Shown: piece by piece, positions 19,276-52,652 of the stretch
Layout of the letters: each line of letters opens with the position of its first letter
Position numbering within the stretch: the first letter of the stretch is position 1
NCBI GenBank assembly: GCA_020348445.1
Contig: CP070751.1
Span: 3,755,189-3,819,188, forward strand
Source of the DNA: Thermoplasmata archaeon
GTDB lineage: Archaea > Thermoplasmatota > Thermoplasmata > GCA-020350865
Reading direction: 5' to 3'
DNA length: 64,000 bases
Program-made: the position numbers and the translations under genes
Notes under the pieces: generated by a model
Databases searched by the model: none
What the model was told of the DNA's origin: nothing
What the model saw: the letters and a program-made list of their open reading frames with translations, nothing else

Positions 19276-19284
19276 TTTTATATA
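19276..19284 (+). promoter_or_regulatory. Putative TATA box (TTTTATATA) upstream of mvhGA
   Basis: ~45 nt upstream of the mvhG ATG, with the GGAAGGAGGGAG RBS in between. Confidence 0.3.
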
Positions 19285-19324
19285 CTTTCAAGCTATACCC
19301 ATTCCTACCTTCGGAAGGAGGGAG

Positions 19325-20278: not shown

Positions 20279-20283
20279 TATGA

Positions 20284-26523: not shown

Positions 26524-27311
26524 GCTTTCACCTCCGGTACAATGGAGATGTATTTGGGTGTAAATCCTTCGATTGAGTCCAGTGCAAGCTGATTTCTCTT
26601 TCTAAGAAAGACCACATGATCCAGAATTCTGTCTGTAGGAAGATCAATCTCAGAGGCGAGCTCCTTTACTGACATTGGTTTTTCGGTAATTAGGCCAAGT
26701 AGTCTCTTCCTTTCAAACTCGGCCTCGATGGCGTCCTCCATAAACTCGTCCCACTCCTCCTGACTCTTGGTTTCATTATATACATTACCCTGTTCCACTA
26801 TCTTTCTCTCTTTTGAAACAATGGCTCTGAGTCTGAAATCCAGTGCTGCGAGCTTGGCCGCATTTATATTGGCCATTAGTTTCTCATCCGGTTTCTCTCC
26901 AGATAACGGGCTCGGCCCCAATTCCTGAATTTGCTTGGGAAATTCTCTCATGAGTATAGCAAATCTTTCACCTTCTGATGCTGCAACCCATTCCATTCTG
27001 AGCCTTTCAGGCTCCAATCCAGCTTTCTTAACAAGCTGTCTCGTCATCTTTATCTTTCTTTCAGCCTGGTAGTTGCCCTCAAGGTAATGGCAGTCTCCAG
27101 GGTGGCATCCACCTATAAACACACCATCCACACCCTGGGTAAAGGCTTCGAGGACGATATAGGGATCGATTCTTCCTGAACACATGACTCTGATGATCCT
27201 GATGTTTGGAGGATACTGGAATCTGGAAACACCTGCCAAATCGGCTCCTGCATATGAACACCAGTTGCATAAGAAGCCAACAATTTTCGGTTCAAATTCA
27301 GTCTCAGCCAT
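26520..27311 (-). CDS. mvhD: MvhD-type [2Fe-2S] protein with C-terminal winged-helix-like extension (263 aa)
   Basis: N-terminal MvhD core (FEPKIVGFLCNWCSYAGADLAG..GCHPGDCHY). The C-terminal ~70 aa is SVKELASEIDLPTDRILDHVVFLRKRNQLALDSIEGFTPKY, a helix-turn-helix plus wing pattern. Confidence 0.8.
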   Translation of the reverse strand: MAETEFEPKIVGFLCNWCSYAGADLAGVSRFQYPPNIRIIRVMCSGRIDPYIVLEAFTQGVDGVFIGGCHPGDCHYLEGNYQAERKIKMTRQLVKKAGLEPERLRMEWVAASEGERFAILMREFPKQIQELGPSPLSGEKPDEKLMANINAAKLAALDFRLRAIVSKERKIVEQGNVYNETKSQEEWDEFMEDAIEAEFERKRLLGLITEKPMSVKELASEIDLPTDRILDHVVFLRKRNQLALDSIEGFTPKYISIVPEVKA

Positions 27312-30300: not shown

Positions 30301-30323
30301 ACTGCTCCAACAGAGTCTGTCAT
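27312..30323 (-). CDS. hdrA: HdrA-like flavoprotein, two-module long form (1003 aa)
   Basis: Same motif set as 23506..26523; roughly 55% identity estimated by eye. Confidence 0.9.
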   Translation of the reverse strand: MTDSVGAVMVVGGGIAGMQSSLDLADSGYRVYLVDKSPSIGGAMAQLDKTFPTNDCAMCIMAPKLVETGRHRNIDLITNSTIDKIEGKAGNFKVTVSKKSRFIDESKCTGCGICTQKCPVEVVDEYNKGLKVRKAIFVKYPQAVPLIFSIDKDYCIGCGNCERLCKAGAIVYSQEPETKVLEVGSIILSPGFDEFDLVQKRKEYGYGRFPNVVSSLELERMLSATGPFGGLVLRPSDGEVVKKIAFVQCVGSRDRSIGNPYCSSVCCMFAIKEAVIAQEHNPGLEATIFFMDMRAFGKEFDDYYVRAEKEHGIRFVKNNRISSIAEDPITNNLLVTFIDKGNLVSEVFDMVALAVGMTAPKDAKDLSEKLGVQLNPYDFCSTDILFSPLETSKPGIFVGGAFGAPKDIPDSVSEASGAAAKASSVIASERGKLVTVKEYPPEKEVSGEEPRIGVFICHCGINIGGVVDVPGVVEYAKTLPNVAYAENNLYTCSQDTQKKIREKIEENNLNRVIVASCTPRTHQPLFQNTCAEAGLNPYLFEMANIRDQCSWVHMHEPAKATQKAKDLVRMVVAKAGLLEPLTRVPIEVKPSGLVIGGGLSGITAAQELSKQGFEAFIVERENELGGLMKRVHYEMVGEKKDVQKKLKELIKNVNSDKKIHVFTNSTVKDISGYIGNFKTTIDQNGEEKEIEHGIVIVATGGMEHKPKEYLYGENDNVMTQLEFEGKLAKKKMDADTVVMIQCVGCRNDERPYCSRVCCTEAVKNALKVKEMNPATSVYVLFKDIRTYGFSEVFYEEAAKNGVKFIRYDDETKPKVADKKGLEVKIWEPFLGEEITIKPDVLVLSAATIPHPDNADLAQMLKVPLSKHKFFLEAHMKLRPVEFATEGIFLCGLAHSPKFFEECVSQASAAVSRAATILSKKTLEAEGMVSSIDEDICSGCGTCVVICPFNAIEKDENGIARVTEVLCKGCGTCAASCPEKAASIKQFTDEQLIAQVVAAVKEVN

Positions 30324-31105
30324 GCCTCCACCTCCTGGGTTTGAGCTAGGTACATTGGTGTTGTACCTTCGATACCCTCTAGTCTAATCAGATTCCTGTC
30401 CCTCAATGTAACGATATGTTTAAGAATGTCCCTTGAAGGGACTTTCATCTTATCAGCAAGCCCTTTGACAGATTGTGGTTTGTCTTTAGCTAGAAGAAGG
30501 ATTCTTGTACGTACGAGCTCTTCATCGATTGCATTTTCCATCAACTCATCTATCCTTTCCTGGGGTATTTTTTCATCATAGACGTTTTCCTTTTCAACCA
30601 GAGCAAGCTCTTTGCCAACAAGTGTTCTTAACCTGAAATCTTCTACAGCGTTTCTTGCGGCATAAAGGGATTCCATGATTAGCAAATTGGGTTTCTCTCC
30701 AGCTACTGGATTTGGTCCCAAGGATCTGACCTGTTCTGTGAAATCCCTCATGGTCTTGGCAAATCTCTCACCTTCGGAGGCGGCTATCCATTCAAGGCTT
30801 AATCTCTCTGGTTCGAGACCGGACTTTGCAAGGACCTTCTTCAGCATTTTCACTCTCCTCTCAGTATGATAATTCCCCTCCATGTAATGGCAATCACCTG
30901 GGTGACATCCGCCAATGAGCACCCCGTCAGCACCTTGGATGAACATCTCGATAACAAACAGGGGATCAACCCTACCGGAGCACATCACCCTCACGATTCT
31001 GATATTGGGTGGATACTGAAATCTGCTAACACCTGCCAAATCTGCTCCTGCGTAACTACACCAATTGCACAAGAAACCAACAATCTTCGGTTCAAATGCC
31101 TTCAT
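30320..31105 (-). CDS. mvhD: MvhD-type protein with C-terminal wHTH-like extension (261 aa)
   Basis: MvhD core plus C-terminal SVKGLADKMKVPSRDILKHIVTLRDRNLIRLEGIEGTTPMY. Confidence 0.8.
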   Translation of the reverse strand: MKAFEPKIVGFLCNWCSYAGADLAGVSRFQYPPNIRIVRVMCSGRVDPLFVIEMFIQGADGVLIGGCHPGDCHYMEGNYHTERRVKMLKKVLAKSGLEPERLSLEWIAASEGERFAKTMRDFTEQVRSLGPNPVAGEKPNLLIMESLYAARNAVEDFRLRTLVGKELALVEKENVYDEKIPQERIDELMENAIDEELVRTRILLLAKDKPQSVKGLADKMKVPSRDILKHIVTLRDRNLIRLEGIEGTTPMYLAQTQEVEA

Positions 31106-31128
31106 CTTCTACACCCCTATTTTTATTA

Positions 31129-31413
31129 TCACTCATCCTCCACTCCCGACATCAATCCTCTTACACAAACTGAGAAATTACATGAATCTGATCTTGCCCT
31201 CTCACAGTAATGACATCTTAAAGTCAGAAGCACTTCTCTTACGATCCATTCCTTTGTCTCGTCATCAACATCTGGAAGGTTCTTTTTAATCTCCATAATA
31301 CTTTTACTCTGTACATCCTTCCATTTTGGTTGTGTTGATAGGTGCATTCTCTTTTTCCATGCATTCCTCATCTCTTCGATCTTCTTTTGTTCTTCTTCGT
31401 TTAATTCACTCAA
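31129..31413 (-). CDS. Conserved small Cys4 protein (uncharacterised family; 4 paralogs in window)
   Basis: C-terminal block VLLTLRCHYCERARSDSCNFSVCVRGLMSG (CxxCx7Cx4C). Preceded by LPD(V/I)D(D/E)ETK. The stop overlaps the hdrA start. Confidence 0.6.
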   Translation of the reverse strand: MSELNEEEQKKIEEMRNAWKKRMHLSTQPKWKDVQSKSIMEIKKNLPDVDDETKEWIVREVLLTLRCHYCERARSDSCNFSVCVRGLMSGVEDE

Positions 31414-34433: not shown

Positions 34434-34741
34434 TAATAAATCCCCCCTATTTCTCTTCCTGACATAAGTCCTCGGATACAGATTGAGAAGTTACATTGAT
34501 CTGTTCTTGCCCGCTCGCAACTATGGCATCTTAAAGTTAACAAAAGTTCTCGGGTTATCTTTTTCTTTGTTTCCTCGTCGATGTCTGGGAGACTTGTTTT
34601 ACAAAGTTGTATGATCTTATTTTGTGTTTGTCCCCAACTTGGTATGGTGGATATACGGCTTTTGTAATCCCATCTGCTTCTTATTTCATCAACAGTTTTC
34701 TTATCCTTTTTGCTCAATTCGCTTTTAGTGTTCTTGGTCAC
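34433..34741 (-). CDS. Conserved small Cys4 protein (paralog)
   Basis: ..LPDIDEETKKKITRELLLTLRCHSCERARTDQCNFSICIRGLMSG. Overlaps the mvhD stop upstream and the hdrA start downstream. Confidence 0.6.
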   Translation of the reverse strand: MTKNTKSELSKKDKKTVDEIRSRWDYKSRISTIPSWGQTQNKIIQLCKTSLPDIDEETKKKITRELLLTLRCHSCERARTDQCNFSICIRGLMSGREIGGIY

Positions 34742-35523
34742 TTTATCCCCTCCTCTACTGCTAAATATAAAGGAGTATCATTGTCAATCCTGTCAAGCAT
34801 CACCAGACCTCGGTCCCTTAACGTCACAATATGTTGTAATACTCGATTGGGGGGAAGTTCTAGGCGCTGAGCCAGTTCATCTACTGATAACGCTTCATCC
34901 CTAACTTCAAAAATAATACTACATCTATCTAATTCATAATTGATGGCGGCGTCAAGTACGGTGTCTATTTCCTCCTGAGGAACTTTCTCATTGTATACAT
35001 TTCCTTCCATAACCAAATCCAATTCTCTTGAAACAAGTAACTTCAATCTAAAGTCCTTCACAGCATTTTTTGCTGCAAATAATGCCTTAAGAATATCAAC
35101 GTTAGGTGTTGTTCCGCTAACGGGTGATGGCCCAATTTCTTTTATTTGCTTTGTGAATTCTCGGATAGTTTCTGCAAATCGTTCGCCTTCGGAAGCAGAA
35201 ATCCATTCTAGTCTGAGTCGCTCCTCTTCAAACCCTATCCTCTTCAATAATTTCTTTGTCAGTTTTACCCTCTTTTCAGCAAAATAATTACCTGTTTGAT
35301 AATGGCAATCTCCAAAATGACATCCACCAACAAGGATCCCATCTGCACCTTGGATGAACATTTCCAAGATAAGAGATGGTTCGACCCTACCACTACACAT
35401 TACCCTTACTATCCTAAGATTTGCAGGATATTGATATCTGCTCACACCTGCCAGATCAGCACCTGCATATGAGCACCAGTTGCATAAAAATCCCAGAATT
35501 TTAGGTTCGAATTTTGTTGCCAT
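34738..35523 (-). CDS. mvhD: MvhD-type protein with C-terminal wHTH-like extension (261 aa)
   Basis: MvhD core plus C-terminal SVDELAQRLELPPNRVLQHIVTLRDRGLVMLDRIDNDTPLY. Confidence 0.8.
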   Translation of the reverse strand: MATKFEPKILGFLCNWCSYAGADLAGVSRYQYPANLRIVRVMCSGRVEPSLILEMFIQGADGILVGGCHFGDCHYQTGNYFAEKRVKLTKKLLKRIGFEEERLRLEWISASEGERFAETIREFTKQIKEIGPSPVSGTTPNVDILKALFAAKNAVKDFRLKLLVSRELDLVMEGNVYNEKVPQEEIDTVLDAAINYELDRCSIIFEVRDEALSVDELAQRLELPPNRVLQHIVTLRDRGLVMLDRIDNDTPLYLAVEEGIK

Positions 35524-38500
35524 TAGATCGCCTCCCTTAAAGCGGCCATGGCTTGTGCAGTAAGTTGTGTTTCAGTGTAGTTCCGAATTGTAATTGCGTT
35601 CTCTGGACATGAACCTGCACAAATACCACAACCCTTACATAGCACTTCCATAACCTTTGCCACCAATTCCTCTTCATCTTTGCGGACAGCACCGTATGGA
35701 CAAACGAACTCGCAGGTTCTGCACCCTATACACAGTTCCTCATCCACGGAGGATACCATTCCTTCGACGAATAGTTTCTCCTTCGAGAGAATTGTGGCGG
35801 CTCTTGAAACTGCTGCACTGGATTGTGAAATGCACTCATTAAAGAATTTTGGTGAATGGGCCAAACCACAAACGAAGATACCATCGGTTGCGAACTCCAC
35901 AGGACGCAGTTTCATATGTGCTTCCAAGAAGAATCCGTCTTTTGTCAATGGAACCTTTAATATCTTTGCTAAATCATAATTATCAGGATTAGGTACTGTT
36001 GCAGCGCTCAATACCAGGTAATCTGGCTTTATAACTACATCCTCATTTAGGAAATGATCATAGACCTTAACTTCCAAGCCATTATCATCCGTAACAACGG
36101 GTTTTGTATTGTCAAAGAATCTAATGAACTGGATACCCTGTCTTGCAGCTTCCTCGTAATATATTTCCCGAAATCCATATGTTCTCATATCCTTGAACAG
36201 GACGAACACGCTGATTTGGGGATTCTTCTCTTTGGCCTTCAACGCATTTTTTACAGCCTCGACACAGCATACCCTACTGCAATACGTTCTGATTTCATCT
36301 CTGCACCCAACACATTGGATCATAACAACAGTCTTGGCATTGGGATCCAATTCATTGTTATAAAGTATATTGTCGAATTCGAGCTGGGTGAGCACTTTAT
36401 CATTTTTTCCGTATAGGAACTCTTTTGGTTGGTATTCGGCACCACCTGAAGCAACGATTATTGCTCCATGTTCAATTTCCTTTTCCTCTCCATTTTGATC
36501 TAAGGTTGTGACGAAGTTACCAACGTAACCGTTTACATCCTTCACCGTTGTATTTTTATAGATTTTGATCTTATCATTTGAATTAACGTTTTCTATGGTC
36601 TTATTAAGCCATGTGGGTATATCCTCTCCTTTCAAACCATAATGCAATCTATTTACCAAACCTCCTAACTCGCTCTCCTTCTCAACAATATGGGCCTCGA
36701 AACCTTGACTTGCCAGCTCCAAAGCCGCATTCATACCTGAGATCCCACCTCCTATAACCAATGCAGATGGTTTTACATCAATGGGCACCTTGGGTAATGC
36801 AGTGCTCAATCTGGCCTTTGCTAAAGCCATTCTTACCAGATCCTTAGCCTTCTCTGTTGCTCTTTCTGGCTCTTCCATATGCACCCATGAGCATTGGTCA
36901 CGAATATTGGCCATCTCGAAAAGATAGGGATTAAGCCCACTTTCTGCCACCGTGTTTTGGAACAGGGGTCCATGGGTTCTAGGAGTGCAGCTTGCCACCA
37001 TTACGCGGTTGAGGTTGTGCTCTTTGATCTTCTCTTTTATATGCTCCTGGGTATCTTGGGAACACGTGTACAGGTTCTCCTCTGCAAATATAACATTGGG
37101 CAAGGTCTTTGCATATTCTACGACCTTAGGAACATTCACAACTCCGCCAATATTTATTCCGCAATGACAGATGAAAGCTCCAATGCGCGGTTCCTCCTCA
37201 CCAACCTCTTTTTCAGGAGGATACTCCTTTACTGTTGTGAGGGTATTTCTTTGGGATGCGATTATACTGGATACTTTGGTTGCGGCACCGCTTGCCTGAG
37301 CCACGCTATCTGGAATATCCTTTGGATCCTGAAATACCCCGCAGACATATATCCCTGGTTTGTTGGTGCTTATGGGGGAGAATATTGTTGTATTGCAGAA
37401 ATCGAAGTCGTTAAGTTCTATTCCCAATTTCTCTCCTAATTCATGGGCTCCCTTTGGTTTTTCCATACCCACAGAAAGAACCACCAAATCAAATTCTTCC
37501 TCCTTTAATTCCCCTCCAAAGATGTATACTATCTTCAGATTCTTTGTTTTGGGCATCTCCTCAACAGAGGAAATGCGATTGTTTGAAACAAACCTAACCT
37601 TATGCTCTTTAGCAGCCCGAATGTAATAATCGTCGAACTCCTTGCCAAAGGCACGCATGTCCATGAAGAATATAGTTGAGCTTAATTCGGGGGTATGCTC
37701 CTGGGCAATCACAGCTTCCTTTATGGCGAACATGCAGCATACTGAGGAGCAGTATGGATTGCCGATGCTTCTGTCCCTTGATCCAACACATTGTATAAAA
37801 GCGATTTTTTGGGCAACTTTTCCATCTGAAGGTCGAAGAACCACACCACCATATGGTCCTGTTGCAGAAAGCATTCTCTCCAGTTCAAGGCTTGATACGA
37901 CGTTGGGAAATCTACCGTAGCCGTACTCCCTTCGCATCGTCCTCAAATCGAACTCTTCAAAACCAGGAGAGACAATAATCGAGCCTACATTCAGATCGAT
38001 TTTTTCCTGTGTTTGTGAGTATTTTATGGCTCCTGCCCTGCATTGGGTCTCACAGATTCCACAACCTATGCAATGGTCTTGGTCTATGCAATGGATAGGC
38101 GGCACAGCCTGTGGATATTTTATATAAACCGCTTTTCTGATCTTAAAGCCCCTGTTATACTCGTCTTTGACCTCCACGGGGCAGCGCTGTGTACAGAGAC
38201 CACAACCTGTACATTTGCTTTCGTCCACATATCTTGGTCTCTTATTGATGGTGACCTTGAAGTTTCCTGCTTCACCTTCCACATTCTCCACATTGGCATT
38301 GGTGATGAGCTTGATATTCTGATGTCTTCCTGTTTCCACAAGTTTGGGAGCCATTATGCACATTGCGCAGTCATTTGTTGGGAAGGTTTTATCCAACTGG
38401 GCCATAGCACCCCCTATACTTGGAGAGTAATCAACGATATAAACATAGAATCCCGAATCAGCCAGATCCAGTGCGGATTGCATACCGGCTATTCCTCCTC

Positions 38501-38534
38501 CAATGACCAGTGCGGCTCCTATAGTTTCATCCAT
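35523..38534 (-). CDS. hdrA: HdrA-like flavoprotein, two-module long form (~1003 aa from MDETIG; the ORF track extends to 38588)
   Basis: Same motif architecture. The likely ATG overlaps the stop of the small Cys4 gene (TGATG). Confidence 0.9.
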   Translation of the reverse strand: MDETIGAALVIGGGIAGMQSALDLADSGFYVYIVDYSPSIGGAMAQLDKTFPTNDCAMCIMAPKLVETGRHQNIKLITNANVENVEGEAGNFKVTINKRPRYVDESKCTGCGLCTQRCPVEVKDEYNRGFKIRKAVYIKYPQAVPPIHCIDQDHCIGCGICETQCRAGAIKYSQTQEKIDLNVGSIIVSPGFEEFDLRTMRREYGYGRFPNVVSSLELERMLSATGPYGGVVLRPSDGKVAQKIAFIQCVGSRDRSIGNPYCSSVCCMFAIKEAVIAQEHTPELSSTIFFMDMRAFGKEFDDYYIRAAKEHKVRFVSNNRISSVEEMPKTKNLKIVYIFGGELKEEEFDLVVLSVGMEKPKGAHELGEKLGIELNDFDFCNTTIFSPISTNKPGIYVCGVFQDPKDIPDSVAQASGAATKVSSIIASQRNTLTTVKEYPPEKEVGEEEPRIGAFICHCGINIGGVVNVPKVVEYAKTLPNVIFAEENLYTCSQDTQEHIKEKIKEHNLNRVMVASCTPRTHGPLFQNTVAESGLNPYLFEMANIRDQCSWVHMEEPERATEKAKDLVRMALAKARLSTALPKVPIDVKPSALVIGGGISGMNAALELASQGFEAHIVEKESELGGLVNRLHYGLKGEDIPTWLNKTIENVNSNDKIKIYKNTTVKDVNGYVGNFVTTLDQNGEEKEIEHGAIIVASGGAEYQPKEFLYGKNDKVLTQLEFDNILYNNELDPNAKTVVMIQCVGCRDEIRTYCSRVCCVEAVKNALKAKEKNPQISVFVLFKDMRTYGFREIYYEEAARQGIQFIRFFDNTKPVVTDDNGLEVKVYDHFLNEDVVIKPDYLVLSAATVPNPDNYDLAKILKVPLTKDGFFLEAHMKLRPVEFATDGIFVCGLAHSPKFFNECISQSSAAVSRAATILSKEKLFVEGMVSSVDEELCIGCRTCEFVCPYGAVRKDEEELVAKVMEVLCKGCGICAGSCPENAITIRNYTETQLTAQAMAALREAI

Positions 38535-38839
38535 CAGATCACCTCCTGACCAGAAAGAAGACCGCGAATACAAACTGAGAAGTTGCATTCATCGCTACGG
38601 GCTCTTTCGCAACTGTGACATCTAAGTGTTAGAAGCATATTTCTTGTGATTTTCTTCTTTGTCTCTTCATCGATATCAGGTAACGAGCTCAGGCATTCCT
38701 GGATGATCTTTGTTTGAACCTGTCCCCATCTGGGAAGTGTGGATATTCTATCCTGGTTTCGCCATGAATCCTTTATCATCCTGACCTTAGCCTCTGAACC
38801 TTTTTTAGATGTTTTTGAAGGAGCCTTTTCTTTCTTCAT
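38534..38839 (-). CDS. Conserved small Cys4 protein (paralog)
   Basis: ..LPDIDEETKKKITRNMLLTLRCHSCERARSDECNFSVCIRGLLSG. Confidence 0.6.
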   Translation of the reverse strand: MKKEKAPSKTSKKGSEAKVRMIKDSWRNQDRISTLPRWGQVQTKIIQECLSSLPDIDEETKKKITRNMLLTLRCHSCERARSDECNFSVCIRGLLSGQEVI

Positions 38840-39642
38840 CTAAGCACCTCCTCTTTTGGAGTTATGTAAAGGGGCATCACACCGTCGAATCTATCCACCA
38901 CGACAAGGCCTCTGTCTTTGAGGGTAACAATATGCTGCAATACTATTTCAGGGGATAGATTAATCTGTGAGGCGATGTCCAAAACTGAATAAGGCCCGTC
39001 TATGGTCATCAATAGTATTTTCTGCCTGGCCATCTCCTCATCAATGGCAGAGTCCATGAGATTATCGAACTCCTCTTGTGAAATTGTTTTGTCGTAGACA
39101 TTGCCTTTTTCTGTTAGGTTGATTTCTCGGGCCACCAAGGACCTCAATCTAAAATCTCTTGCTGCATTTTTGGCAACAAAAAGACCTTCCAGTTTATCAA
39201 CATCAGGATTCTTCCCAGCAACAGGGCTTGGCCCTAAAGTTTTTACCTCGTTTACAAAATCCTCCACAACCTTGGAAAACCTCTCACCCTCAGATGCTGA
39301 TACCCATTCCAGGCGCAATCTGTTAGGATTAAGACCAGACTTTTCGATTAATTTCTTTGCGAGTTTTATTTTCTTCTCAGTGTAGTAATTACCAGTAATA
39401 TAATGGCAGTCACCAAGGTGACAACCACCTACAAGTACTCCATCTGCACCATGTATCAACATCTCGATTATGAGAACTGGATCCACTCTTGAACTGCACA
39501 TGACCCTGACAGTTCTTGTGTTTGTCGGGTACTGGTACCTGGAAACTCCAGCCAAATCAGCTCCTGCATATGAGCACCAGTTGCATAGAAATGCAATGAT
39601 CTTGGGTTCGAATCCAGATGCTGTTGCTTCTTCTTCACTCAT
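38836..39642 (-). CDS. mvhD: MvhD-type protein with C-terminal wHTH-like extension (268 aa)
   Basis: MvhD core plus C-terminal SVLDIASQINLSPEIVLQHIVTLKDRGLVVVDRFDGVMPLY. Confidence 0.8.
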   Translation of the reverse strand: MSEEEATASGFEPKIIAFLCNWCSYAGADLAGVSRYQYPTNTRTVRVMCSSRVDPVLIIEMLIHGADGVLVGGCHLGDCHYITGNYYTEKKIKLAKKLIEKSGLNPNRLRLEWVSASEGERFSKVVEDFVNEVKTLGPSPVAGKNPDVDKLEGLFVAKNAARDFRLRSLVAREINLTEKGNVYDKTISQEEFDNLMDSAIDEEMARQKILLMTIDGPYSVLDIASQINLSPEIVLQHIVTLKDRGLVVVDRFDGVMPLYITPKEEVLR

Positions 39643-41543
39643 GTCCCTACCTCCTCCAACGCCGCAAGGGCCTCAGCCGTGAGCTGCTCATCTGTATAGT
39701 GAGTCATTGTAATGGCCTTCTCAGGACATATGGAGCCGCAAGTTCCGCAGCCTTTGCATGCCGCTACAATGACCTCTGCAAGCCCTTCCTCATCAAATTG
39801 AATCGCACCATATGGGCATACCACTTCACATGACTTGCACCCCGAGCAGCGCTCCCTGTCCACATAGGAAACTATGGCCTCAGCCTGAACATAACCCAGG
39901 CTCATGGGTATTGAAGCACGGGATGCGGCACCATATGCTTGGGCAACGGCCTCGGTGATGTTTGCAGGTCCGTGAGCAGTCCCGCAAAGGAAAATACCGT
40001 CAGTAGCAAAATCAACTGGACGAAGTTTAACATGGGCCTCCAAGAAGAATTCATCTCTACCCAAGGGAACCTTGAGCATCTTTGAAAGTTCCTGGGCATC
40101 TGGTCTCTGGGTAAGAGGTGTTGCCAATATTATCAGATCAGGATTCATCTTTCTGTCGGCCTTCAATGTCTCGTGGTAATAGGATACTGTGAGTTTTCCA
40201 TCCTCCATTGAGACCTTTGGTGGATTCTCAGGGACGAAGCGAACGAACTTTACCCTCTGCTCCCTGGATTTATTGTATAGCAGCTCCTGCTCTATACCAT
40301 ATGTTGTGATTCCTCTGTTGAAGACCGTGACATCCACTGCTGCCCCTCTTTCTTTGGGTCTTTCCTCGCCTCTTTCTGCACCCCTTCTTCTTCCACCTCT
40401 CCTTCCCCTTCTGTCCCTTCTGCTTCTTCTTCTGGATTCACCCTCCTCCTCCTCTGGTTCCTCTGCTTTTTCCTCTTCTTTATCCGAAACCGCCTTTTCA
40501 TCCACACTGGCTTCCTCTACTTTAGCTTCTGCATCACCGCCCTTTGAGGCCATCTCCATGACCTTCATTGCGTTCTTGACTGTAACAGTGCAGCATATTC
40601 TAGAGCAGTATTCCTTGTCCTGACCCCTTGCTCCCGAACATGTTATGAAGGCAACACTCTTTAAATCCGCGGGGACTTTGTCTTCCTTTACCATCTTCTC
40701 AAAGTCCGTTAATGTTATTATATTGTCGTGTTCTCCAAGACCATAGAGTCCCTTTGGTCTGTATTCATCGGCACCTGTTGCAACGATGATGGTTCCCACA
40801 CCAATTTCCTTGTCCTCCCCATTCACATTTAAAACGGCATCGTACTTGCCGATGTAACCGGTAAGTGATTTTAAGGTGGTATTCTTGTAAAGTTGAATCT
40901 TGTCATTTGCCTCCACTTTTTTAATCAATCCCTCATAGGCTTTTGCACTGCTTTCTTGGGTTTGATAAAGGGTGCTCAATTTTCTTAGAAATCCTCCGAG
41001 TTCAGGTTCTTTTTCTATCAAATGTGTTTCAAAACCCTGATTGGCCAGATTGAGGGCCGCTGTCATACCTGCTATACCACCACCTATCACCAGAGAAGAG
41101 GGTCTAACATCGATTTTCACCTCCTCTTGAGGCTCCAAGAGCACGGCCCTTGCCACACCCATTTTTATCAGATCCTTGGACTTTGCCGTGGCTTTCTCCT
41201 GCTCTTTCATATGAACCCATGAGCAGTGCTCCCTGATGTTCACGAATGTGAAAAGGTATTTGTTCAGTCCTGCCTCCTCGCAGATTCTCATAAAAAGTGG
41301 AGCATGTGTTCTGGGTGTGCATGATGCCACAATCACCCTGGTAAGATTCTTCTCCTTAATCGCATTTTTTATGGCTGTCAAACCATCATCAGCACATGTA
41401 TAAAGATTGTTCTCGGCGTGAACCACATTTGGCAATGTTTTTGCGTACTCTGCAACGTCCGGTACATCAACAAATCCCCCGATGTTCACACCGCAGTGAC
41501 ATACGAATACACCGATTCTGGGCTCTTTTATCTCCATGGCCAT
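39639..41543 (-). CDS. hdrA: HdrA, classical single-module form (634 aa) carrying a ~70-aa Glu/Arg-rich low-complexity insertion
   Basis: N-terminal VFVCHCGVNIGG / ASCTPRTHAPLF / IREHCSWVH. GGGIAGMTAAL FAD motif. C-terminal CSGCKSCEVVCP / CKGCGTCGSICP. The insertion is EAKVEEASVDEKAVSDKEEEKAEEPEEEEGESRRRSRRDRRGRRGGRRRGAERGEERPKERG. Confidence 0.9.
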   Translation of the reverse strand: MAMEIKEPRIGVFVCHCGVNIGGFVDVPDVAEYAKTLPNVVHAENNLYTCADDGLTAIKNAIKEKNLTRVIVASCTPRTHAPLFMRICEEAGLNKYLFTFVNIREHCSWVHMKEQEKATAKSKDLIKMGVARAVLLEPQEEVKIDVRPSSLVIGGGIAGMTAALNLANQGFETHLIEKEPELGGFLRKLSTLYQTQESSAKAYEGLIKKVEANDKIQLYKNTTLKSLTGYIGKYDAVLNVNGEDKEIGVGTIIVATGADEYRPKGLYGLGEHDNIITLTDFEKMVKEDKVPADLKSVAFITCSGARGQDKEYCSRICCTVTVKNAMKVMEMASKGGDAEAKVEEASVDEKAVSDKEEEKAEEPEEEEGESRRRSRRDRRGRRGGRRRGAERGEERPKERGAAVDVTVFNRGITTYGIEQELLYNKSREQRVKFVRFVPENPPKVSMEDGKLTVSYYHETLKADRKMNPDLIILATPLTQRPDAQELSKMLKVPLGRDEFFLEAHVKLRPVDFATDGIFLCGTAHGPANITEAVAQAYGAASRASIPMSLGYVQAEAIVSYVDRERCSGCKSCEVVCPYGAIQFDEEGLAEVIVAACKGCGTCGSICPEKAITMTHYTDEQLTAEALAALEEVGT

Positions 41544-42850
41544 CAGCTCACCCCCTTTGTCGAAAGGAGCTCTGCCGCCCTTGCCGCAGCTCCAGATGCC
41601 TGGGCAACTGCCTCGGGTATATCCATGGGCTCATGACAGTATCCTGCAATGAAGATGCCGGGACGTTTGGTATCCACGGGATTGAGCAACTTATCAGCTG
41701 ATTCGTAGAAGCCGAACTCATCCACATCAATATCAAGGAGCTTGGCCAGTTCTTTTGCACCCTTACGGGGCACAAGTGTAGTGGCAAGAATAACCATGTC
41801 TACCTCCATTTTCTCCTGTTTGCCAGCAACATCGTAAACAACTATTGGATTTTGGTTGGCAGGATTTTCCTGCACTGTGGCATCTGAATTGATGTAGGTG
41901 ATTCCATATTCGCTTTTTCCTCGCTCCATATATTCATTGAAACCTTTTCCAAATGTCCTCATATCTTTGTAGAAAATGAATGATTCCATATCATCGTGAT
42001 GTTCCCTTGCCAAAATCGCCTCCTTGGTTGAATGCATGCAGCATACACTGCAGCAGTACGGATGATCCAGCTGGGGATTTCTTGAGCCAACGCATTGTAT
42101 AAATCCTATCTTCTTTGGCCTTTCCCCGTCTGAACGTCTTTGGATATGACCTCCCGTGGGACCTGCAGCATTTATCATACGCTCGAATTCCATGGCAGTG
42201 AAGACGTTCTGAACCTTTTTATAACCATATTCCTTGGCTGGGGTCGGGTCCCATACATCGTAGCCTGTGGCAACGATTATTGATCCAACATTAAGCTTCA
42301 ATTCCTCAGGACCCTTGTCGAATTCTATTGCACCAATTTTACACGCCTTCTCGCAGAGCCTGCACTTTCCTTTTGTATAAAAAATGCAGTTCTCTTCGTC
42401 GATGGTCATGACCCTGGGCACTGCTTGAAGAAAGGGAAGGTAAATCGCTTTTCGCATCCCAAGTTCCATATCAAATTCGTTGGGGACCTTAACTGGACAT
42501 TTGGCATTACAATCACCGCATCCAGTGCAGACATCTTCGTTCACATGTCTGGCTTTTCTTGTTACCGTTGCATTATAGTTACCCGCATCCCCGGCAATTT
42601 CAGAGACCTCTGAGTAGGTCATTACATTTATGTTATCATGGCCAAAACAATCCGCCATTTTCGGGGCTAAGATACAAATGGAGCAGTCATTTGTGGGGAA
42701 GGTCTTATCCAATTGTGCCATTCTTCCCCCGATAGAGGGTTCCCTCTCAACAAGATAGACCTGCATACCTTTATCAGCCAAATCCAAGGATGCCTGGATT
42801 CCTGCGATGCCTCCACCAATTACTAAGACATTTTTCTTTTCCATTTTCAT
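41543..42850 (-). CDS. HdrA-like N-module flavoprotein (435 aa; stand-alone counterpart of module 1 of the long HdrA forms)
   Basis: VLVIGGGIAGIQASLDLA, FPTNDCSIC, CTGCGDCNAKCP, CRLCEKACK, CVGSRN..YCCSVCC. Aligns with residues ~1-440 of the long HdrA paralogs. Its start overlaps the stop of 39639..41543. Confidence 0.85.
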   Translation of the reverse strand: MKMEKKNVLVIGGGIAGIQASLDLADKGMQVYLVEREPSIGGRMAQLDKTFPTNDCSICILAPKMADCFGHDNINVMTYSEVSEIAGDAGNYNATVTRKARHVNEDVCTGCGDCNAKCPVKVPNEFDMELGMRKAIYLPFLQAVPRVMTIDEENCIFYTKGKCRLCEKACKIGAIEFDKGPEELKLNVGSIIVATGYDVWDPTPAKEYGYKKVQNVFTAMEFERMINAAGPTGGHIQRRSDGERPKKIGFIQCVGSRNPQLDHPYCCSVCCMHSTKEAILAREHHDDMESFIFYKDMRTFGKGFNEYMERGKSEYGITYINSDATVQENPANQNPIVVYDVAGKQEKMEVDMVILATTLVPRKGAKELAKLLDIDVDEFGFYESADKLLNPVDTKRPGIFIAGYCHEPMDIPEAVAQASGAAARAAELLSTKGVS

Positions 42851-43049: not shown

Positions 43050-44177
43050 TCATTTTTCATTATCATCCATATTTTTATTTTTCAATGCCCTTTCTCTCTT
43101 CATATTTGCAAATTCTGAAATTTTTTCTAATTGTTCCTGGGCAAGATTATCGGATCCTCCTTGGCTTTTATCTAACTCTTCTATGAACCTGTGGCGAATT
43201 GCATCTTGATAAATCGCCTCTCCCAAATCTGTTCTGATCAATACAGTGGTCCATCCCTCAGGTGAACCCAAACCGCCAAAAGAAAGGTCTGCAAAGTCGT
43301 TTGCAAAATCTGAGCAGGCAAGACAGGCAGAGCGGGCAAATTCCTCCATTTTTTCCAAGGGAATGTGTTTTGTATCACCATTTTTTTGCTTGATTATGAA
43401 ATCCTCCCTGATATTCATATTCTCGATGTCATCAAAATTCACGCCAAGGATTTTTTCCATATCTCTTTTTTTAGATACATCAAAGGAAAAATTCTCGGTG
43501 CAAAAAAGGCCGAAAACGAACTTCACTACATGGGAGGGTACAACATGCAAACTTTGCATCTTTCTCAGGGTATGTACTTGACACGGTGTGCTCACAACAA
43601 CTATTTTCACCAAATCCATATTGGTAATTTCTTTTATTGCAAACATGGTTGGAGAATATGTGGAGAACCTGCTAAGCTCCTCGACACCACAAATTCCCGT
43701 GAATCTCGAGCCGGCAGCAGAGAGAACCTCTTCGTAGGAGGTGGCTATCATGGGCTCTCTGGCAAATTGCGCAGTCTTCTTGGATACCACAGCACCATCG
43801 ATCATTTTTTTTTCCAATAAGAAATGTAGAATTGAAGTGACAACTCCACCATCTGTTGCATTTTTTCGAATCTCTGGGTTTGTACTTCTGGCAGATACAA
43901 TATTTTTAAACCTACCAACGGGTGAAACCCAATGATAAGTGTCTTTTAGATCCTGGTCAAGAATACTAATCTGTGGGCAGATAATATAGCAGATACCACA
44001 TTCAAGGCAGCTTTCTTCATCCAAATATTTTGGCCTTCCATCCTCGCCAAAACCGATGGCCATAAGCTCTCCTGCAGAGCAAAACGAGACACACCCTCCA
44101 CAGGATCCGCATAATCCAGGTTCATGAACTTCTTTGACCAGGTCCTTGAATGTCTTTGTCTCATCAATTTCGTCCAA
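43050..44177 (-). CDS. Coenzyme F420-dependent oxidoreductase beta subunit family protein (FrhB/FdhB/FpoF-like)
   Basis: N-terminal 2x[4Fe-4S] motifs (CGSCGGCVSFCS, CLECGICYIICP) followed by the FrhB-type core (NATDGGVVTSILHFLLEKKMIDGAVV). Confidence 0.75.
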   Translation of the reverse strand: MDEIDETKTFKDLVKEVHEPGLCGSCGGCVSFCSAGELMAIGFGEDGRPKYLDEESCLECGICYIICPQISILDQDLKDTYHWVSPVGRFKNIVSARSTNPEIRKNATDGGVVTSILHFLLEKKMIDGAVVSKKTAQFAREPMIATSYEEVLSAAGSRFTGICGVEELSRFSTYSPTMFAIKEITNMDLVKIVVVSTPCQVHTLRKMQSLHVVPSHVVKFVFGLFCTENFSFDVSKKRDMEKILGVNFDDIENMNIREDFIIKQKNGDTKHIPLEKMEEFARSACLACSDFANDFADLSFGGLGSPEGWTTVLIRTDLGEAIYQDAIRHRFIEELDKSQGGSDNLAQEQLEKISEFANMKRERALKNKNMDDNEK

Positions 44178-46874: not shown

Positions 46875-48020
46875 TTACTTTATTCTTTCTATTATAGCCG
46901 ATATCAGATCACCAACAGGAATATCCACTTTCTCCTTCTCAACAGGTATCTCCTTCCATGTGGCACAAGTGAAGTGAATCACACATTTAGGACAAGTTGT
47001 AATGAGCTTATCGGCCCCTGTATTTTTCGCCTCCATTAACCGATCTATCTGCATTATCTTAGAGAGGGATTCACAGGTTGCAAAGGCATTTACTCCGCAG
47101 CATGCACTGTTCTCCTTTATGTTCTCCATTTCAATCAATTCAAATCCCGCAGCTTCAATGAGTTCCCTGGGGCTGTCGTAGATCTCCAAATGCCTTCCAA
47201 GTCTGCACGGGTCATGGTATGTAACTTTCTCATTTCCATCGCTTTTAAATTCCAGTTTCCCGTCATCCACCAAATCCATTAGATAATCTGTGATGTAAAC
47301 CAGCTCAAAATCCAGATCACCTGCAATATCCTGATAATCGAAATCAAATGTTCTCATCCCTTCTGGGCAGGAAAAAACCACGGTCTTTGCACCAGCTTCC
47401 TTTATTGCCTTGATATTGAGATTCATTAATTTGTCAAAATTATCTTCATCCCCTGTCCAATTGAGATCGTGACCGCAGCATACCTCGTTTTTGCTCATTG
47501 CTGGTGTGATACCGGCTTTGTTCAACACCCTTACATTGTTTTTAGCAATATCAAGGATACCGGCCTTCCTTTCCTCGAAAATCTTATCTAGATGAGCCTG
47601 GCAGCCAGAGAAATAGTACACATCACCCTTTTCTGCAACCTTTAAATCATCGGTAACCCAGCTTAACCTGTTCTGTGGTAACTGGTGAGATTGGATTCTG
47701 GCAATTGTCTGCATCAATCCTCCCTGGGAGCACGTGGGCTCAAATCCGTCTAAAACAGATTCACTTCTAAGTCCTCTGATGAACTCGGTGTAATCCACTT
47801 TGTAAGGACACATCTGACTGCACATGGCACATGTAGTACAGCGCCATATGTCCATGTTCTGGGCAAGGCCCCCCTCCACACCCTCCAATGCCTTAACCAC
47901 TATCAGTCTTGGAGCAAAGTTCTGGTCCAGTTTGGCAACGGGACATACAGTCGTGCATTTACCGCATTCAACACAATCATATGCTCCTGTGTCATCGATG
48001 AGATCATCTATTGCGGACAT
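46875..48020 (-). CDS. HdrD-like / fused HdrC-HdrB-type iron-sulfur protein with CCG domains (GlcF-like)
   Basis: N-terminal 2x[4Fe-4S] (CVECGKCTTVCP, CTTCAMCSQMCP) followed by two cysteine-rich CCG-type segments (EVCCGHDLNW, SACCGVNAF). Confidence 0.75.
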   Translation of the reverse strand: MSAIDDLIDDTGAYDCVECGKCTTVCPVAKLDQNFAPRLIVVKALEGVEGGLAQNMDIWRCTTCAMCSQMCPYKVDYTEFIRGLRSESVLDGFEPTCSQGGLMQTIARIQSHQLPQNRLSWVTDDLKVAEKGDVYYFSGCQAHLDKIFEERKAGILDIAKNNVRVLNKAGITPAMSKNEVCCGHDLNWTGDEDNFDKLMNLNIKAIKEAGAKTVVFSCPEGMRTFDFDYQDIAGDLDFELVYITDYLMDLVDDGKLEFKSDGNEKVTYHDPCRLGRHLEIYDSPRELIEAAGFELIEMENIKENSACCGVNAFATCESLSKIMQIDRLMEAKNTGADKLITTCPKCVIHFTCATWKEIPVEKEKVDIPVGDLISAIIERIK

Positions 48021-51000: not shown

Positions 51001-51433
51001 CGCAGAGCCCGCAGCCAATGCATATCTCCTGGTCAATACAATGAACAGGTGGAACAGCTTGAGGATACTTTACATGGATGGCTTTTCTTCTCTTTAGGCC
51101 CTTGTTGTACTCGTCCTTTACTTCAATGGGGCATCTTTGTGTACAAATACCGCATCCCGTACAACGACTTTCATCCACATATCTCGGCCTCTTGGTGAGG
51201 GTGACCTTGAAATTTCCTGCTCCTCCTTCTACATTCTCCAAATCTGCATTTGTGATGAGCTGGATATTGTGATGGCGTCCAGTCTCCACAAGTTTGGGAG
51301 CCATGATGCACATTGCACAATCATTTGTAGGGAAGGTCTTATCAAGCTGGGACATTGCCCCACCGATGCTGGGGCTGTTATCGAGGACATAGACTTTGAA
51401 TCCTGAATCTGCCAGATCCAGTGCAGACTGCAT
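48008..51433 (-). CDS. hdrA: HdrA (two-module long form) fused C-terminally to an MvhD domain (1141 aa as called); N-terminus lacks a canonical start
   Basis: Full HdrA motif set, then a C-terminal FEPFILAFCCNWCAYAGADLAG..GCHIGDCHY MvhD domain. The called ATG (MQSALDLA) falls after the GGGISG FAD motif. The in-frame upstream stretch KKVGAILIIGGGISG contains no ATG/GTG/TTG before the stop at 51572. Confidence 0.8.
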   Translation of the reverse strand: MQSALDLADSGFKVYVLDNSPSIGGAMSQLDKTFPTNDCAMCIMAPKLVETGRHHNIQLITNADLENVEGGAGNFKVTLTKRPRYVDESRCTGCGICTQRCPIEVKDEYNKGLKRRKAIHVKYPQAVPPVHCIDQEICIGCGLCETQCEAEAIKYSQEKKEINIQVGSIIMSPGFKEFDILSKRKEYGYGKFPNVISSLEMERMLSATGPFNGLVLRPSDGEIPKKVAFIQCVGSRDRTSGNPYCSSVCCMFAIKEAVIAQEHAPGLKSTIFFMDMRAFGKEFDDYYIRAEEEHGIGFVKNNRVSGVKEDKNTNNLILNYVDEGELKEEEFDLVVLSVGMDSPDTALELAEKLGVELNDYNFCETSVTSPLETNRKGVFVSGAFSAPKDIPDTVAQASGAAACASSLIASERDKLVEVKEYPPEKEVAQEEPRLGVFICHCGINIGGVVKVPEVVEYVKNLPNVVYAESNPYTCSQDTQQKIKSKIEEHNLNRVVVASCTPRTHEPLFQNTVREAGLNPYFFEMANIRDQCSWVHMHEPEAATRKAKDLVRMAISKTRLLEPLYKVEIPINQSALVIGGGISGMMAVLELAEHGFAAHIVEKEKELGGNLKRLHYMLTGENLQEFLKETIDKINSNDKINVYVNSEIKNIEGCVGDFKTTISENGEEKTLEHGAVIVATGGISYEPKEYLYGQDERIITQLDFEERLGKGQVDAKTVVMIQCVGSRDETRTYCSRVCCSEAVKNALKLKELNPEANIYILYKDMRTYGFREIFYEEAARSGIIFIRYYDDSKPDVQLAGGELSVSIFDHFLGENIDINPDLLVLSTATIPSVDNEKIAKMLKVPLSKDGFFLEAHMKLRPLDFATEGVFLCGLAHSPKFLEECISQAKGTVSRAATLLSKKFFEANAVISVVDESKCRGCGECVDICEFGAPELITDDEGKKHSKINEALCKGCGACAASCCNNAIITKHFKNDQIHTMIDSALEGHKLREEFEPFILAFCCNWCAYAGADLAGVSRFQYPPNIRVIRVMCSGRISPSFIMEALHKGVDGILVAGCHIGDCHYISGNEKAEIRVKNVKELIGLLGMDERRVRLEWISASEGKRFAEVMTEFVNKVKELGPNPLNPIEQSIKPQKEEIECPQ

Positions 51434-51537
51434 GCCTGAGATTCCGCCACCTATTATGAGAATCGCGCCTACCTTTTTTGATTCAGCTTCCTTAATGACT
51501 GAAGCAGCTTCTACCTCGACCTGTCCATCCTTTGCCT

Positions 51538-51861
51538 CTATCCCACCACCCCCTTCCCTGAAAGCAATCCTCTAATGCACACCGAGAAATGACAGGCATC
51601 GCTTCTTGCCCTCTCGCAGCTGTGGCATCTTAACGTGAGAAGTAATTCTCTTGTGATTTTCTTTCTTGTCTCTTCATCTATATCGGGGAGGTTTTCCTTG
51701 CAATCCTGAATGATCTTATTTTGAACCTGAGCCCAGGCGGGTAAGGTGGAGACCTTGTATTTTTTTCTCCAAGAGTTGCGAATATTTTTGATCTTGTCCA
51801 ACTCTTCTTCTTTTATTTCCTTGTCACCATTATTAATTTCCATTTTTGTTCCCCTATTCAA
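51538..51861 (-). CDS. Conserved small Cys4 protein (paralog)
   Basis: ..LPDIDEETRKKITRELLLTLRCHSCERARSDACHFSVCIRGLLSG. Confidence 0.6.
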   Translation of the reverse strand: MNRGTKMEINNGDKEIKEEELDKIKNIRNSWRKKYKVSTLPAWAQVQNKIIQDCKENLPDIDEETRKKITRELLLTLRCHSCERARSDACHFSVCIRGLLSGKGVVG

Positions 51862-52652
51862 TCACTTTGGACATAGTTATATATTGGAGATGAGCCTTCG
51901 ATTTTCTCCAGGCCCACCAATCCCCTGTCCCGAAGTACCACCAGGTGTTCTAGGACCTCTCTTGAGGGGGTTTTAATGTCCTGGGCTATATCTTTGACTG
52001 ACCTGGACTTTTTCATAAGTGACCTCAGAATTCTTTGTCTGAGCATCTCCTCCTCAATAATTTCATCCAGTATCCCATCAAATCGTTCATCTTCGATTTT
52101 GTTGTTGTAGACATTCCCCTTTTCAATTATGTTGTATGCTTTTGCGCAAAGTAATCTCAACCTGAAATCGTTGGCTGCATCCCTTGCTATTAACAATTGC
52201 TCCATAATTTTCAGGTCAGGGGATTTGCCCGAGATCGGGCTTGGCCCAAGTTCCTTAATTTTGTTGGTCATGTCCTTCATTATTTCGGCAAATCTAACAG
52301 ATTCTGATGCAGAGACCCATTCCAATCTTAGCCTCTCTGGGTTCAACCCTACCCTTTGAAGCAGACTCTTGGTCATTTCTATCCTATACACTGTATGATA
52401 ATTACCCTCCATGTAGTGACAGTCCCCGGGATGGCACCCGCCAATAAATACTCCATCAATACCCTGTATGAACATCTCCAGTATTATGGAAGGCTCGATT
52501 CTGGAACTGCACATGACCCTAACGATTCTGATATTATGGGGGTACTGTATCCTGCTCACACCTGCCAAATCGGCTCCGGCATAACAGCACCAATTACAAA
52601 GGTAGCCTATTATCTTTGGATCGAACTCATCCAATGCCCCATCCCCATTCAC
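51858..52652 (-). CDS. mvhD: MvhD-type protein with C-terminal wHTH-like extension (264 aa)
   Basis: MvhD core (FDPKIIGYLCNWCCYAGADLAG..GCHPGDCHY) plus C-terminal SVKDIAQDIKTPSREVLEHLVVLRDRGLVGLEKIEGSSPIY. Confidence 0.8.
   Translation of the reverse strand: MNGDGALDEFDPKIIGYLCNWCCYAGADLAGVSRIQYPHNIRIVRVMCSSRIEPSIILEMFIQGIDGVFIGGCHPGDCHYMEGNYHTVYRIEMTKSLLQRVGLNPERLRLEWVSASESVRFAEIMKDMTNKIKELGPSPISGKSPDLKIMEQLLIARDAANDFRLRLLCAKAYNIIEKGNVYNNKIEDERFDGILDEIIEEEMLRQRILRSLMKKSRSVKDIAQDIKTPSREVLEHLVVLRDRGLVGLEKIEGSSPIYNYVQSD

Follow-up and report, generated by a model that had tools for sequence, protein, structure and literature searches.

HdrA is the flavin-based electron-bifurcating core of energy metabolism in methanogens and methanotrophs, and the uncharacterised HdrA paralogues of anaerobic methanotrophic (ANME) archaea and of non-methanogenic Thermoplasmata represent an open problem. 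In ANME genomes, adjacent hdrA genes occur that are complementary with respect to the N-terminal domain and Cys197, and these were interpreted to encode a heterodimeric HdrA (Chadwick et al. 2022, PMC9012536). The same study describes domain loss and a 500-residue NfnB-like insertion, and no charged disordered loop. Such a loop is the subject of this analysis. It is found in a window of 64,000 nucleotides from contig CP070751.1 (assembly GCA_020348445.1) of a Thermoplasmata archaeon, within the gene at 39639..41543 on the minus strand, which encodes an HdrA-like flavo-iron-sulfur subunit of 634 amino acids. Together with its neighbour at 41543-42850 this gene (39639-41543) fits the tandem complementary pattern of ANME HdrA5/6 and HdrA12/13 (PMC9012536) exactly. 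The likeness to the ANME tandem clusters extends to the genes for MvhD and for FdhB/FrhB-like proteins, which are often present in the cluster, and to the occurrence of an orthologue in Candidatus Methanoperedens; the difference is that the subunit with the N-terminal domain has, in the window, an acidic/poly-Arg insertion of ~65 residues in its thioredoxin-reductase-like core.

Another described system is the long fused HdrA with two flavin adenine dinucleotide (FAD) sites of the Methanomassiliicoccales (Borrel et al. 2014, PMC4153887), which is typical of the cultured members of this order. The window belongs to the same lineage neighbourhood and contains five fused paralogues of ~1000-1141 amino acids, the C-terminal halves of which are homologous to the 634-residue protein. 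Unlike the latter, the fused paralogues have a canonical 18-residue connection without arginines at the corresponding site, and the loop is limited to the split version of the protein. Finally, the FrhB-like and MvhD neighbours recall the F420H2-fed Elp-Hdr (PMC12350162); this is a resemblance only, and by analogy a bifurcating context fed by F420H2 or H2 is probable.

We are highly confident that the loop is a genuine, conserved, selected and disordered marker of its family. That it serves specifically as a docking arm is a more tentative proposal, and for the two taken together, i.e. an ancient, selected, disordered loop with a docking-arm role, we arrive at a compromise probability of roughly 0.55.

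Position, composition and predicted structure of the insertion

The insertion comprises residues 337-400 (40344..40535, minus strand; DAEAKVEE...EEEEGES RRRSRRDRRGRRGGRRRGAERGEERPKERG), as delimited by translation, AlphaFold2 prediction and comparison with homologues. Translation of this interval yields DAEAKVEEASVDEKAVSDKEEEKAEEPEEEEGESRRRSRRDRRGRRGGRRRGAERGEERPKERG, and the 634-residue open reading frame (ORF) includes precisely the low-complexity stretch quoted in an earlier sequence-only reading, which had reported a Glu-rich tract followed by an Arg/Gly-rich one. Within it, an acidic block (residues 337-370; 40434..40535, minus strand) is followed by an Arg block (residues 371-400; 40344..40433, minus strand). 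In the phmmer alignment to solved structures, residues 423 and 427 of the 8rvu chain flank query residues 330-400, which leaves ~66 extra residues: solved HdrA proteins have 3-4 residues at the site and the 634-residue protein has 71. Within the window itself, the distance from the CSRxCC motif to the next strand is 86 residues as compared to 18 in the paralogues. The strand that follows is retained, VTVFNRGITTYG in the 634-residue protein being equivalent to IIVLYKDIRSYG in the paralogues, and the earlier description of a paralogue segment that was 'replaced' should therefore be amended to an insertion.

AlphaFold2, run with the family alignment, predicted a confident HdrA fold with a mean predicted local distance difference test (pLDDT) score of 78, and Foldseek matched this model to the HdrA structures 8rvu, 5odc and 7bkb with template modelling (TM) scores of 0.72-0.76. 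Residues 337-400 had a pLDDT of 27-34 and were coil; they connect helix 316-335, of which the CSRICC cluster motif marks the start, to strand 404-409. In the divergent orthologue P0077, residues 345-390 were likewise coil (pLDDT 27-28), so that the disorder that had been proposed is predicted for both orthologues modelled. For one of the two, identity across the insertion reaches 71% in the clade concerned, a case of constrained disorder. An ER/K-type charged single alpha-helix was rejected, as AlphaFold2/DSSP gave coil both for residues 337-400 of the window protein and for residues 345-390 of P0077.

In terms of topology, the loop interrupts a crossover from helix to strand in the thioredoxin-reductase-like domain, within the second Rossmann-like subdomain, which bears the CSRICC [4Fe-4S] site. 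Crossovers of this kind lie on the side of the Rossmann fold opposite to the cofactor-binding edge, and the modelled site fits a permissive surface position away from the cofactor. The location on a surface loop that had been put forward earlier agrees with this, since the connection is of the surface type in the thioredoxin-reductase-like flavoprotein fold. The structural papers PMC13518236 and PMC12350162 do not discuss this helix-to-strand connection.

The coding strand of the insertion is rich in purines, with a fraction of 0.81 as compared to 0.56 in the remainder of the gene, and the plus strand is strongly skewed at 40350-40499 (GC skew -0.63, AT skew -0.78). The sequence-only reading had taken this for (GAR)n-like repeat DNA and suggested a triplet-repeat expansion, which would also suit the observation that the small in-frame indels between near-identical relatives map to the tract. 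However, Tandem Repeats Finder, used at its lowest threshold, detects a single tandem repeat in the whole hdrA gene, a 12-bp unit present 2.3 times (40458..40485; score 42), and the purine bias follows from the Glu, Lys, Arg (AGA/AGG) and Gly codons that this genome uses. The choice of AGA/AGG and GAA/GAG is normal for the genome; the arginine codons are AGA or AGG in 15 out of 15 cases in the tract and in 18 out of 22 cases elsewhere in the gene. The Leu/Ser/Pro-rich ORF of 144 amino acids at 40189-40623 on the plus strand is a mirror of the purine-rich coding tract and not a gene. That the tract reflects a general compositional habit of the genome was ruled out for the window: among its 184 six-frame ORFs of at least 80 amino acids, the one with the tract is alone in having 6 or more Arg within 12 residues, or 12 or more Asp/Glu within 20.

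Distribution and age of the loop

To describe the distribution of the loop we used the best 120 matches from a search of 5.8 billion proteins, which are 55-91% identical to the window protein and derive from JGI, NCBI, ENA and Logan assemblies; an exact look-up of the window protein gave no record. In all 120 the site is occupied by an insertion, which is 44-104 residues long and includes at least 6 arginines within 12 residues. The tract is old, because orthologues share the insertion down to 55% identity and because the synonymous divergence (dS) within the tract (0.6-1.0 against the two closest relatives) is as high as outside it, where a recent expansion would have given near-identical units. 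Considering that independent JGI, NCBI, ENA and Logan assemblies hold the insertion, neither a recent (GAR)n triplet expansion nor an assembly artefact can account for it, and we regard this explanation as effectively excluded. What stands of the proposed expansion is a slippage-like drift in length within clusters of at least 90% identity; what does not stand is its recent origin, given the lack of an array, the codon-driven bias and the age of the tract. The drift occurs atop an ancient selected core.

A comparison with repeat-born proteins is appropriate here. According to Schoelmerich et al. 2023, as cited in PMC13079737, disordered regions in Borgs and Methanoperedens are born of perfect nucleotide tandem repeats and evolve rapidly. 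Those regions and the window tract are alike in being archaeal, disordered, biased in composition and variable in length in a manner that resembles slippage. From the Borg-type amino-acid tandem repeats, the window tract differs in that it is ancient, lacks a repeat array and has an Arg core under strong purifying selection.

The loop is confined to a narrow group. In a library of 50%-identity representatives, the loop-bearing homologues collapse to a single representative (P0008). The next 149 representatives are at most 54% identical and their alignments break near residue 331. None of these 149 has a poly-Arg run at the site, and the 16 of them that were checked by eye show the short canonical connection. 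Among the 149, 68 sites could be recognized, of which 66 have a spacing of 18 residues and two a spacing of 15-16. Judging from these comparisons the loop is a synapomorphy that sets one orthogroup apart, at a connection that is otherwise nearly invariant across the superfamily. The earlier suggestion that the loop is highly unusual among HdrA proteins is in accordance with this. The opposite possibility, that of a broadly conserved and known HdrA loop, applies as far as the conservation is concerned and fails with respect to it being a known feature: we found no mention of an Arg-rich or disordered HdrA loop in the searchable literature, and this variant of the tandem heterodimeric HdrA has apparently not yet been described.

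On basis of the taxon names of the cluster members, the orthogroup is found in uncultured Thermoplasmata (Methanomassiliicoccales-related metagenome-assembled genomes, MAGs) and in Candidatus Methanoperedens. The named members comprise MAGs that are labelled Thermoplasmata, Methanomassiliicoccales or Methanobacteriota and include some closed genomes of 1.7-4.2 Mb; in addition, there is a loop-bearing clade from Candidatus Methanoperedens, as well as a locus with the label ANME-2 cluster. A scan of GTDB genomes with generic patterns of the HdrA N-domain recovered at least three loop-bearing loci (L011, L017 and L066) among the 80 listed.

Some orthologues deviate in their termini. In the clade formed by P0019-P0032 and P0040 (e.g. 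P0030, 919 amino acids), the loop-bearing HdrA has an N-terminal extension of 60-300 residues that is rich in Pro, Thr, Ala and Glu. The closest named orthologue (87% identity; L087 8001-9677 in CP070739.1, a Methanomassiliicoccales MAG) ends at residue 558, just before the C-terminal ferredoxin domain, and is followed by unrelated genes, a sign of local rearrangement or of pseudogenisation in this MAG.

Selection on the arginine cluster and charge balance of the loop

The two blocks of the insertion are under different constraints. In an alignment of 61 sequences, R372, R373, R375, R378, R379 and R381 are conserved in at least 90%, and the conserved element takes the form of RRxRR, RRERRERR or a run of six to seven arginines in the various orthologues. 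A codon comparison with the two closest relatives gave a ratio of non-synonymous to synonymous substitution rates (dN/dS) of 0.06-0.07 for the Arg block at a dS of 0.63-0.75, which is indistinguishable from the 0.05-0.06 of the folded parts. The acidic block, which contains every gap column, had a dN/dS of 0.08-0.28. In addition, the densest stretches of 20 residues in the 120 homologues contain around ten Arg for each Lys (1103:108), as compared to a ratio of 22:43 in the remainder of the window protein. Together these observations identify, at the level of the sequence, a cluster of at least 6-15 arginines, and not lysines, as the selected element and hence the Arg block as the core of the insertion.

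The acidic flanks drift fast and are prone to indels, and at the same time they offset the charge of the Arg block. The numbers of positive (7-25) and negative (9-28) residues in the insertion are correlated (r=0.86, for 121 sequences that are phylogenetically non-independent), and the net charge of the insertion is -2.2 +/- 1.9 across this set. In clusters of 90% identity or more, the internal indels are almost all located in the insertion, whereas the Arg core persists. The flanks vary via small in-frame indels and yet hold the loop near electroneutrality. Between clades the insertion is 11-26% identical, versus 61-66% for the remaining protein; inside the largest clade it is 71% identical.

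The low identity between clades, the indel hotspot, the net charge near zero and the full disorder that is predicted could also be explained by a tolerated low-complexity spacer. Such a spacer would be neutral or act as an entropic or solubility 'bristle'. It would need no specific partner, and the constraint would be limited to bulk composition and to charge neutrality, by which the toxicity of a naked poly-Arg stretch is avoided; the fact that neighbouring proteins in some lineages gain terminal low-complexity extensions too is in line with it. The explanation is less easily reconciled with an Arg block that has the same low rate of evolution as the folded domains, with Arg columns that are conserved in at least 90% across clades, with the preference for Arg in a protein that otherwise prefers Lys, and with the identity of the whole insertion within the largest clade. 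Moreover, given that the 18-residue connection is almost invariant elsewhere, the gain and upkeep of 50-100 extra residues needs explaining. Considering both sides, we hold a mere spacer to be unlikely.

A possible role as docking arm

The conservation of arginines specifically, on a flexible tether, points to a guanidinium-dependent contact with an anionic partner. We propose, as the most likely role, that the loop acts as a flexible electrostatic docking or 'fly-casting' arm. Its guanidinium cluster would take hold of an anionic partner, which may be an acidic ferredoxin or polyferredoxin, a further Hdr module, or a ligand rich in phosphate or carboxylate groups. In a bifurcating complex, the ferredoxin/polyferredoxin and the other Hdr module would be the most economical choices. 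The acidic flanks would shield the Arg cluster as long as it is unbound.

Several considerations weigh against this proposal. The dN/dS of the Arg block derives from 30 codons with about three non-synonymous differences (Nd), and the shared ancestry of the sequences tempers the correlation between the charges. The segregation of charge in the insertion is just moderately above that of composition-matched shuffles (kappa ~0.26 versus a mean of 0.12; 340 of 20000 shuffles reach the observed value). Inspection of the sequences of HdrA', the MvhD orthologues and the small Cys protein encoded nearby did not reveal a convincing complementary acidic patch, and any docking partner named is a candidate only, which we infer. 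Finally, a polyampholyte that is close to neutral might just as well serve as an entropic spacer, with a constraint on its composition instead of on binding.

The Arg-specific conservation is also compatible with guanidinium-phosphate chemistry, and thus with a moonlighting function in which the ligand of the cluster is nucleic acid, polyphosphate or an anionic archaeal lipid, and the cluster either tethers the complex to RNA, DNA or the membrane or drives a condensate-like assembly of Hdr paralogues. Eukaryotic RD/RE mixed-charge domains and RGG/RS domains have Arg blocks amid Asp/Glu, are disordered and prefer Arg over Lys. The window tract resembles them in being disordered and Arg-rich with acidic residues, and in its strong preference for Arg over Lys; it differs in that it is an internal loop of a redox enzyme instead of an RNA-processing tail and shows no conserved RGG/RS periodicity. 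The label 'RGG/RS-like' that was given to the tract earlier should be dropped: RGG and RS each occur once in the 634-residue protein and are absent in other clades, where the Arg cluster alone is conserved. The block polyampholyte architecture, the winged-helix (HTH_5/HTH_20) domains of the adjacent MvhD proteins and a locus with at least 8 HdrA-type proteins, which possibly need spatial organisation, add to the case for polyanion binding. Then again, HdrA itself has no RNA- or DNA-binding domain, the charge is neutralised by the acidic flanks, the conserved cluster includes no membrane protein, the winged-helix fusion of MvhD is also found beside loop-less paralogues, and we found no experimental hint in the searchable literature. 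We consider such moonlighting improbable. About equally improbable is the related view of the loop as an assembly or localisation module, in which the pairing of Arg and acidic blocks between molecules, or the binding of a polyanion (RNA, polyphosphate or anionic lipid), would cluster the heterodimeric HdrA with neighbouring Hdr/MvhD paralogues. If true, the latter would amount to a supercomplex or condensate-like hub for electron bifurcation, an organising principle that is undescribed for archaeal flavin-based bifurcating enzymes.

The split HdrA

The identification of the 634-residue protein as HdrA-like is based on the ORF list, phmmer, Pfam, Foldseek and invariant Cys and Gly columns. The phmmer search against the PDB retrieved the HdrA proteins of Methanothermobacter, Methanothermococcus and Methanospirillum (8rvu/5odc/7bkb), with E-values of 1e-105 to 1e-134. 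The FAD domain with its GxGxxG motif is recognized by Pfam at residues 151-289 (Pyr_redox_2, FAD_binding_2 and NAD_binding_8), and G154, G155, G156 and G159 are invariant in the set of 61 sequences. The same is true for C15, C17, C50, C75 and C107 of the N-terminal Fe-S domain, and query residues 5-236 align to chain residues 9-240 of 8rvu at 1e-68. The [4Fe-4S] site of the second subdomain (CxGxR...CSRxCC) is present with C302, C313, C317 and C318 invariant, matching the motif of 8rvu, and the C-terminal 2x[4Fe-4S] ferredoxin domain (Pfam Fer4_21 and Fer4_7, residues 560-613) has invariant C566, C569, C572, C596, C599, C602 and C606, and C576 in at least 90% of the 61 sequences.

Two parts of HdrA are missing. 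The inserted ferredoxin domain is lacking, as residues 241-322 of 8rvu are unmatched in the phmmer alignment and the alignment jumps from query residue 236 to 243, and so is Cys197, which classical, homodimeric HdrA of the methanogen type donates as a ligand to the N-terminal cluster of its partner; at this site the protein reads LYQTQESSAKAY (QTQESS) and 8rvu FPTLDCSMCILA (LDCSMC). Thus, the window protein shares with solved HdrA the fold, the FAD motif, the cysteines of the N-terminal domain, the CSRxCC motif and the C-terminal 2x[4Fe-4S] domain; it differs in the inserted ferredoxin domain and Cys197, and in that it is probably heterodimeric where solved HdrA is homodimeric. The 'classical HdrA' of the earlier description is, by its domain content, better viewed as the half of a split heterodimeric HdrA that bears the N-terminal domain. 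Classical HdrA is further characterized by CoM-S-S-CoB:ferredoxin bifurcation together with HdrBC, and a fused HdrC/B-like protein is encoded in the window at 46875-48020.

The other half would be the partner HdrA' of 435 amino acids (41543..42850, minus strand), which was assigned using the ORF list, Pfam and an alignment with its orthologues and with the N-terminal halves of the fused paralogues. HdrA' has neither the N-terminal domain nor the C-terminal ferredoxin domain, and has both Cys197, in the sequence NDCSIC, and the inserted ferredoxin domain. Because the ORFs of 435 and 634 amino acids hold complementary parts, we interpret them as a tandem heterodimeric HdrA. The stop codon of HdrA' overlaps the start of the 634-residue gene by 1 base. 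The latter is translationally coupled to this partner, from which Cys197 and the inserted ferredoxin domain come.

The split pair is flanked by an FrhB/FdhB-like F420-binding subunit of 375 amino acids (43050..44177, minus strand; Pfam FrhB_FdhB_N and FrhB_FdhB_C) and by an MvhD/FlpD-like [2Fe-2S] connector of 268 amino acids with a C-terminal winged-helix domain (38836..39642, minus strand; Pfam FlpD 5.7e-52). The gene of the connector overlaps the end of the 634-residue gene by 4 bases, and this downstream neighbour is kept in relatives. In L001, L082 and L084-L088, the gene directly upstream of the loop-bearing hdrA encodes a protein of 430-463 amino acids (907 in L085), and the FrhB-like gene upstream of the pair is kept in the Thermoplasmata loci L084, L086, L087 and L088. 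The recurrent order in relatives of 58-91% identity is FrhB-like, HdrA', loop-bearing HdrA, MvhD-winged-helix, a Cys protein of ~101 amino acids and a fused HdrA of ~1005 amino acids; L085 has a variant of this order. In Methanoperedens, the split pair comes after hdrC, hdrB, hdrA, mvhD and an hdrD-like gene.

Two observations concern the proteins of the related clusters. The HdrA' of 907 amino acids (L085 2125-4848) has a Fer4_20 and a second Pyr_redox_2 match, i.e. a GltD/NfnB-like insertion, which recalls the one of NfnB type that was reported in HdrA9-11 of ANME-1. Furthermore, the MvhD orthologues downstream in L088 (4905-5849), L084 (8986-9855) and L085 (7071-7997) have variable N-terminal extensions that are K/E- or P/T/Q-rich, and the proteins of the operon repeatedly acquire disordered low-complexity segments.

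The surrounding Hdr array

The split pair is part of a co-directional Hdr array of ~33 kb on the minus strand (23506-56002) that encodes at least 8 HdrA-type proteins. The array contains four tandem units, each with a fused HdrA that has two FAD sites (1003-1021 amino acids) and an MvhD-winged-helix protein (261-268 amino acids), and, besides the split pair and the FrhB-like subunit, an HdrA of 596 amino acids, a short MvhD, a fused HdrC/B-like protein (46875-48020), an HdrA-MvhD fusion of 1141 amino acids and an HdrA of 1117 amino acids. All five long MvhD/FlpD paralogues (38836-39642, 34738-35523, 30320-31105, 26520-27311 and 51858-52652, all minus strand) have a C-terminal extension of ~120 residues. 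In the only paralogue that was scanned, that at 38836-39642, the extension matches the winged-helix families HTH_5 (2.2e-4) and HTH_20 (1.3e-3); an MvhD of 261 amino acids in a relative has a weak HTH_20 match, and in L001 the winged-helix domain is encoded by a separate gene of 123 codons after a short FlpD.

The small Cys protein of ~101 amino acids (38534-38839, minus strand) is encoded between MvhD and the next fused hdrA. It has the motif LLTLRCxSCER.R...CNFSVCIRGLLSG and no Pfam match. A homologue is found in L084 (9855-10214) and a second copy in the gap at 51434-51857, upstream of the gene for the protein of 1141 amino acids. The ORFs of 101-102 amino acids at this position in L086 and L088 are matched by place and size alone, and the size of the 304-bp gaps at 31106-31409 and 34434-34737 would suit further copies.

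Two starts in the array deserve attention. The mechanical start of the HdrA-MvhD ORF of 1141 amino acids (MQSALDLADSG; 51433-51560, minus strand) cuts off the GxGxxG FAD motif, and the frame extends upstream as ...KKVGAILIIGGGISG without ATG, GTG or TTG; this points to a non-canonical start codon, an error in sequencing or a gene in decay. For the HdrA of 1021 amino acids (35523-38588, minus strand), the start that is listed overlaps the gene of the small Cys protein by 55 bases, and translation probably begins at the internal Met of MDETIGAALVIGGG.

Outside of the array, two adjacent ORFs are found at 19202-21729 on the plus strand, the first of 358 amino acids and the second (20284-21729; 481 amino acids) with a match to NiFeSe_Hases. 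In L001, an Oxidored_q6 gene and a gene for the large subunit of a [NiFe]-hydrogenase form the end of the same cluster. Based on these matches, the ORFs at 19202-21729 may encode an Mvh-type hydrogenase that serves the Hdr array.

Significance

To specialists the loop will be a mild surprise and of moderate interest. It goes together with a sharply defined group of HdrA paralogues, characterized by a single 50%-identity cluster, a split heterodimer, synteny with FrhB and MvhD, and a selected Arg cluster on a disordered loop. As such it provides a simple sequence marker for annotation and, with an orthologue in the enrichable Candidatus Methanoperedens, an experimental handle. Should the loop be inert, it would still be a useful phylogenetic marker; should it recruit ferredoxin or organise Hdr supercomplexes, it would constitute a new, disorder-based element in the way that bifurcating complexes find their partners.

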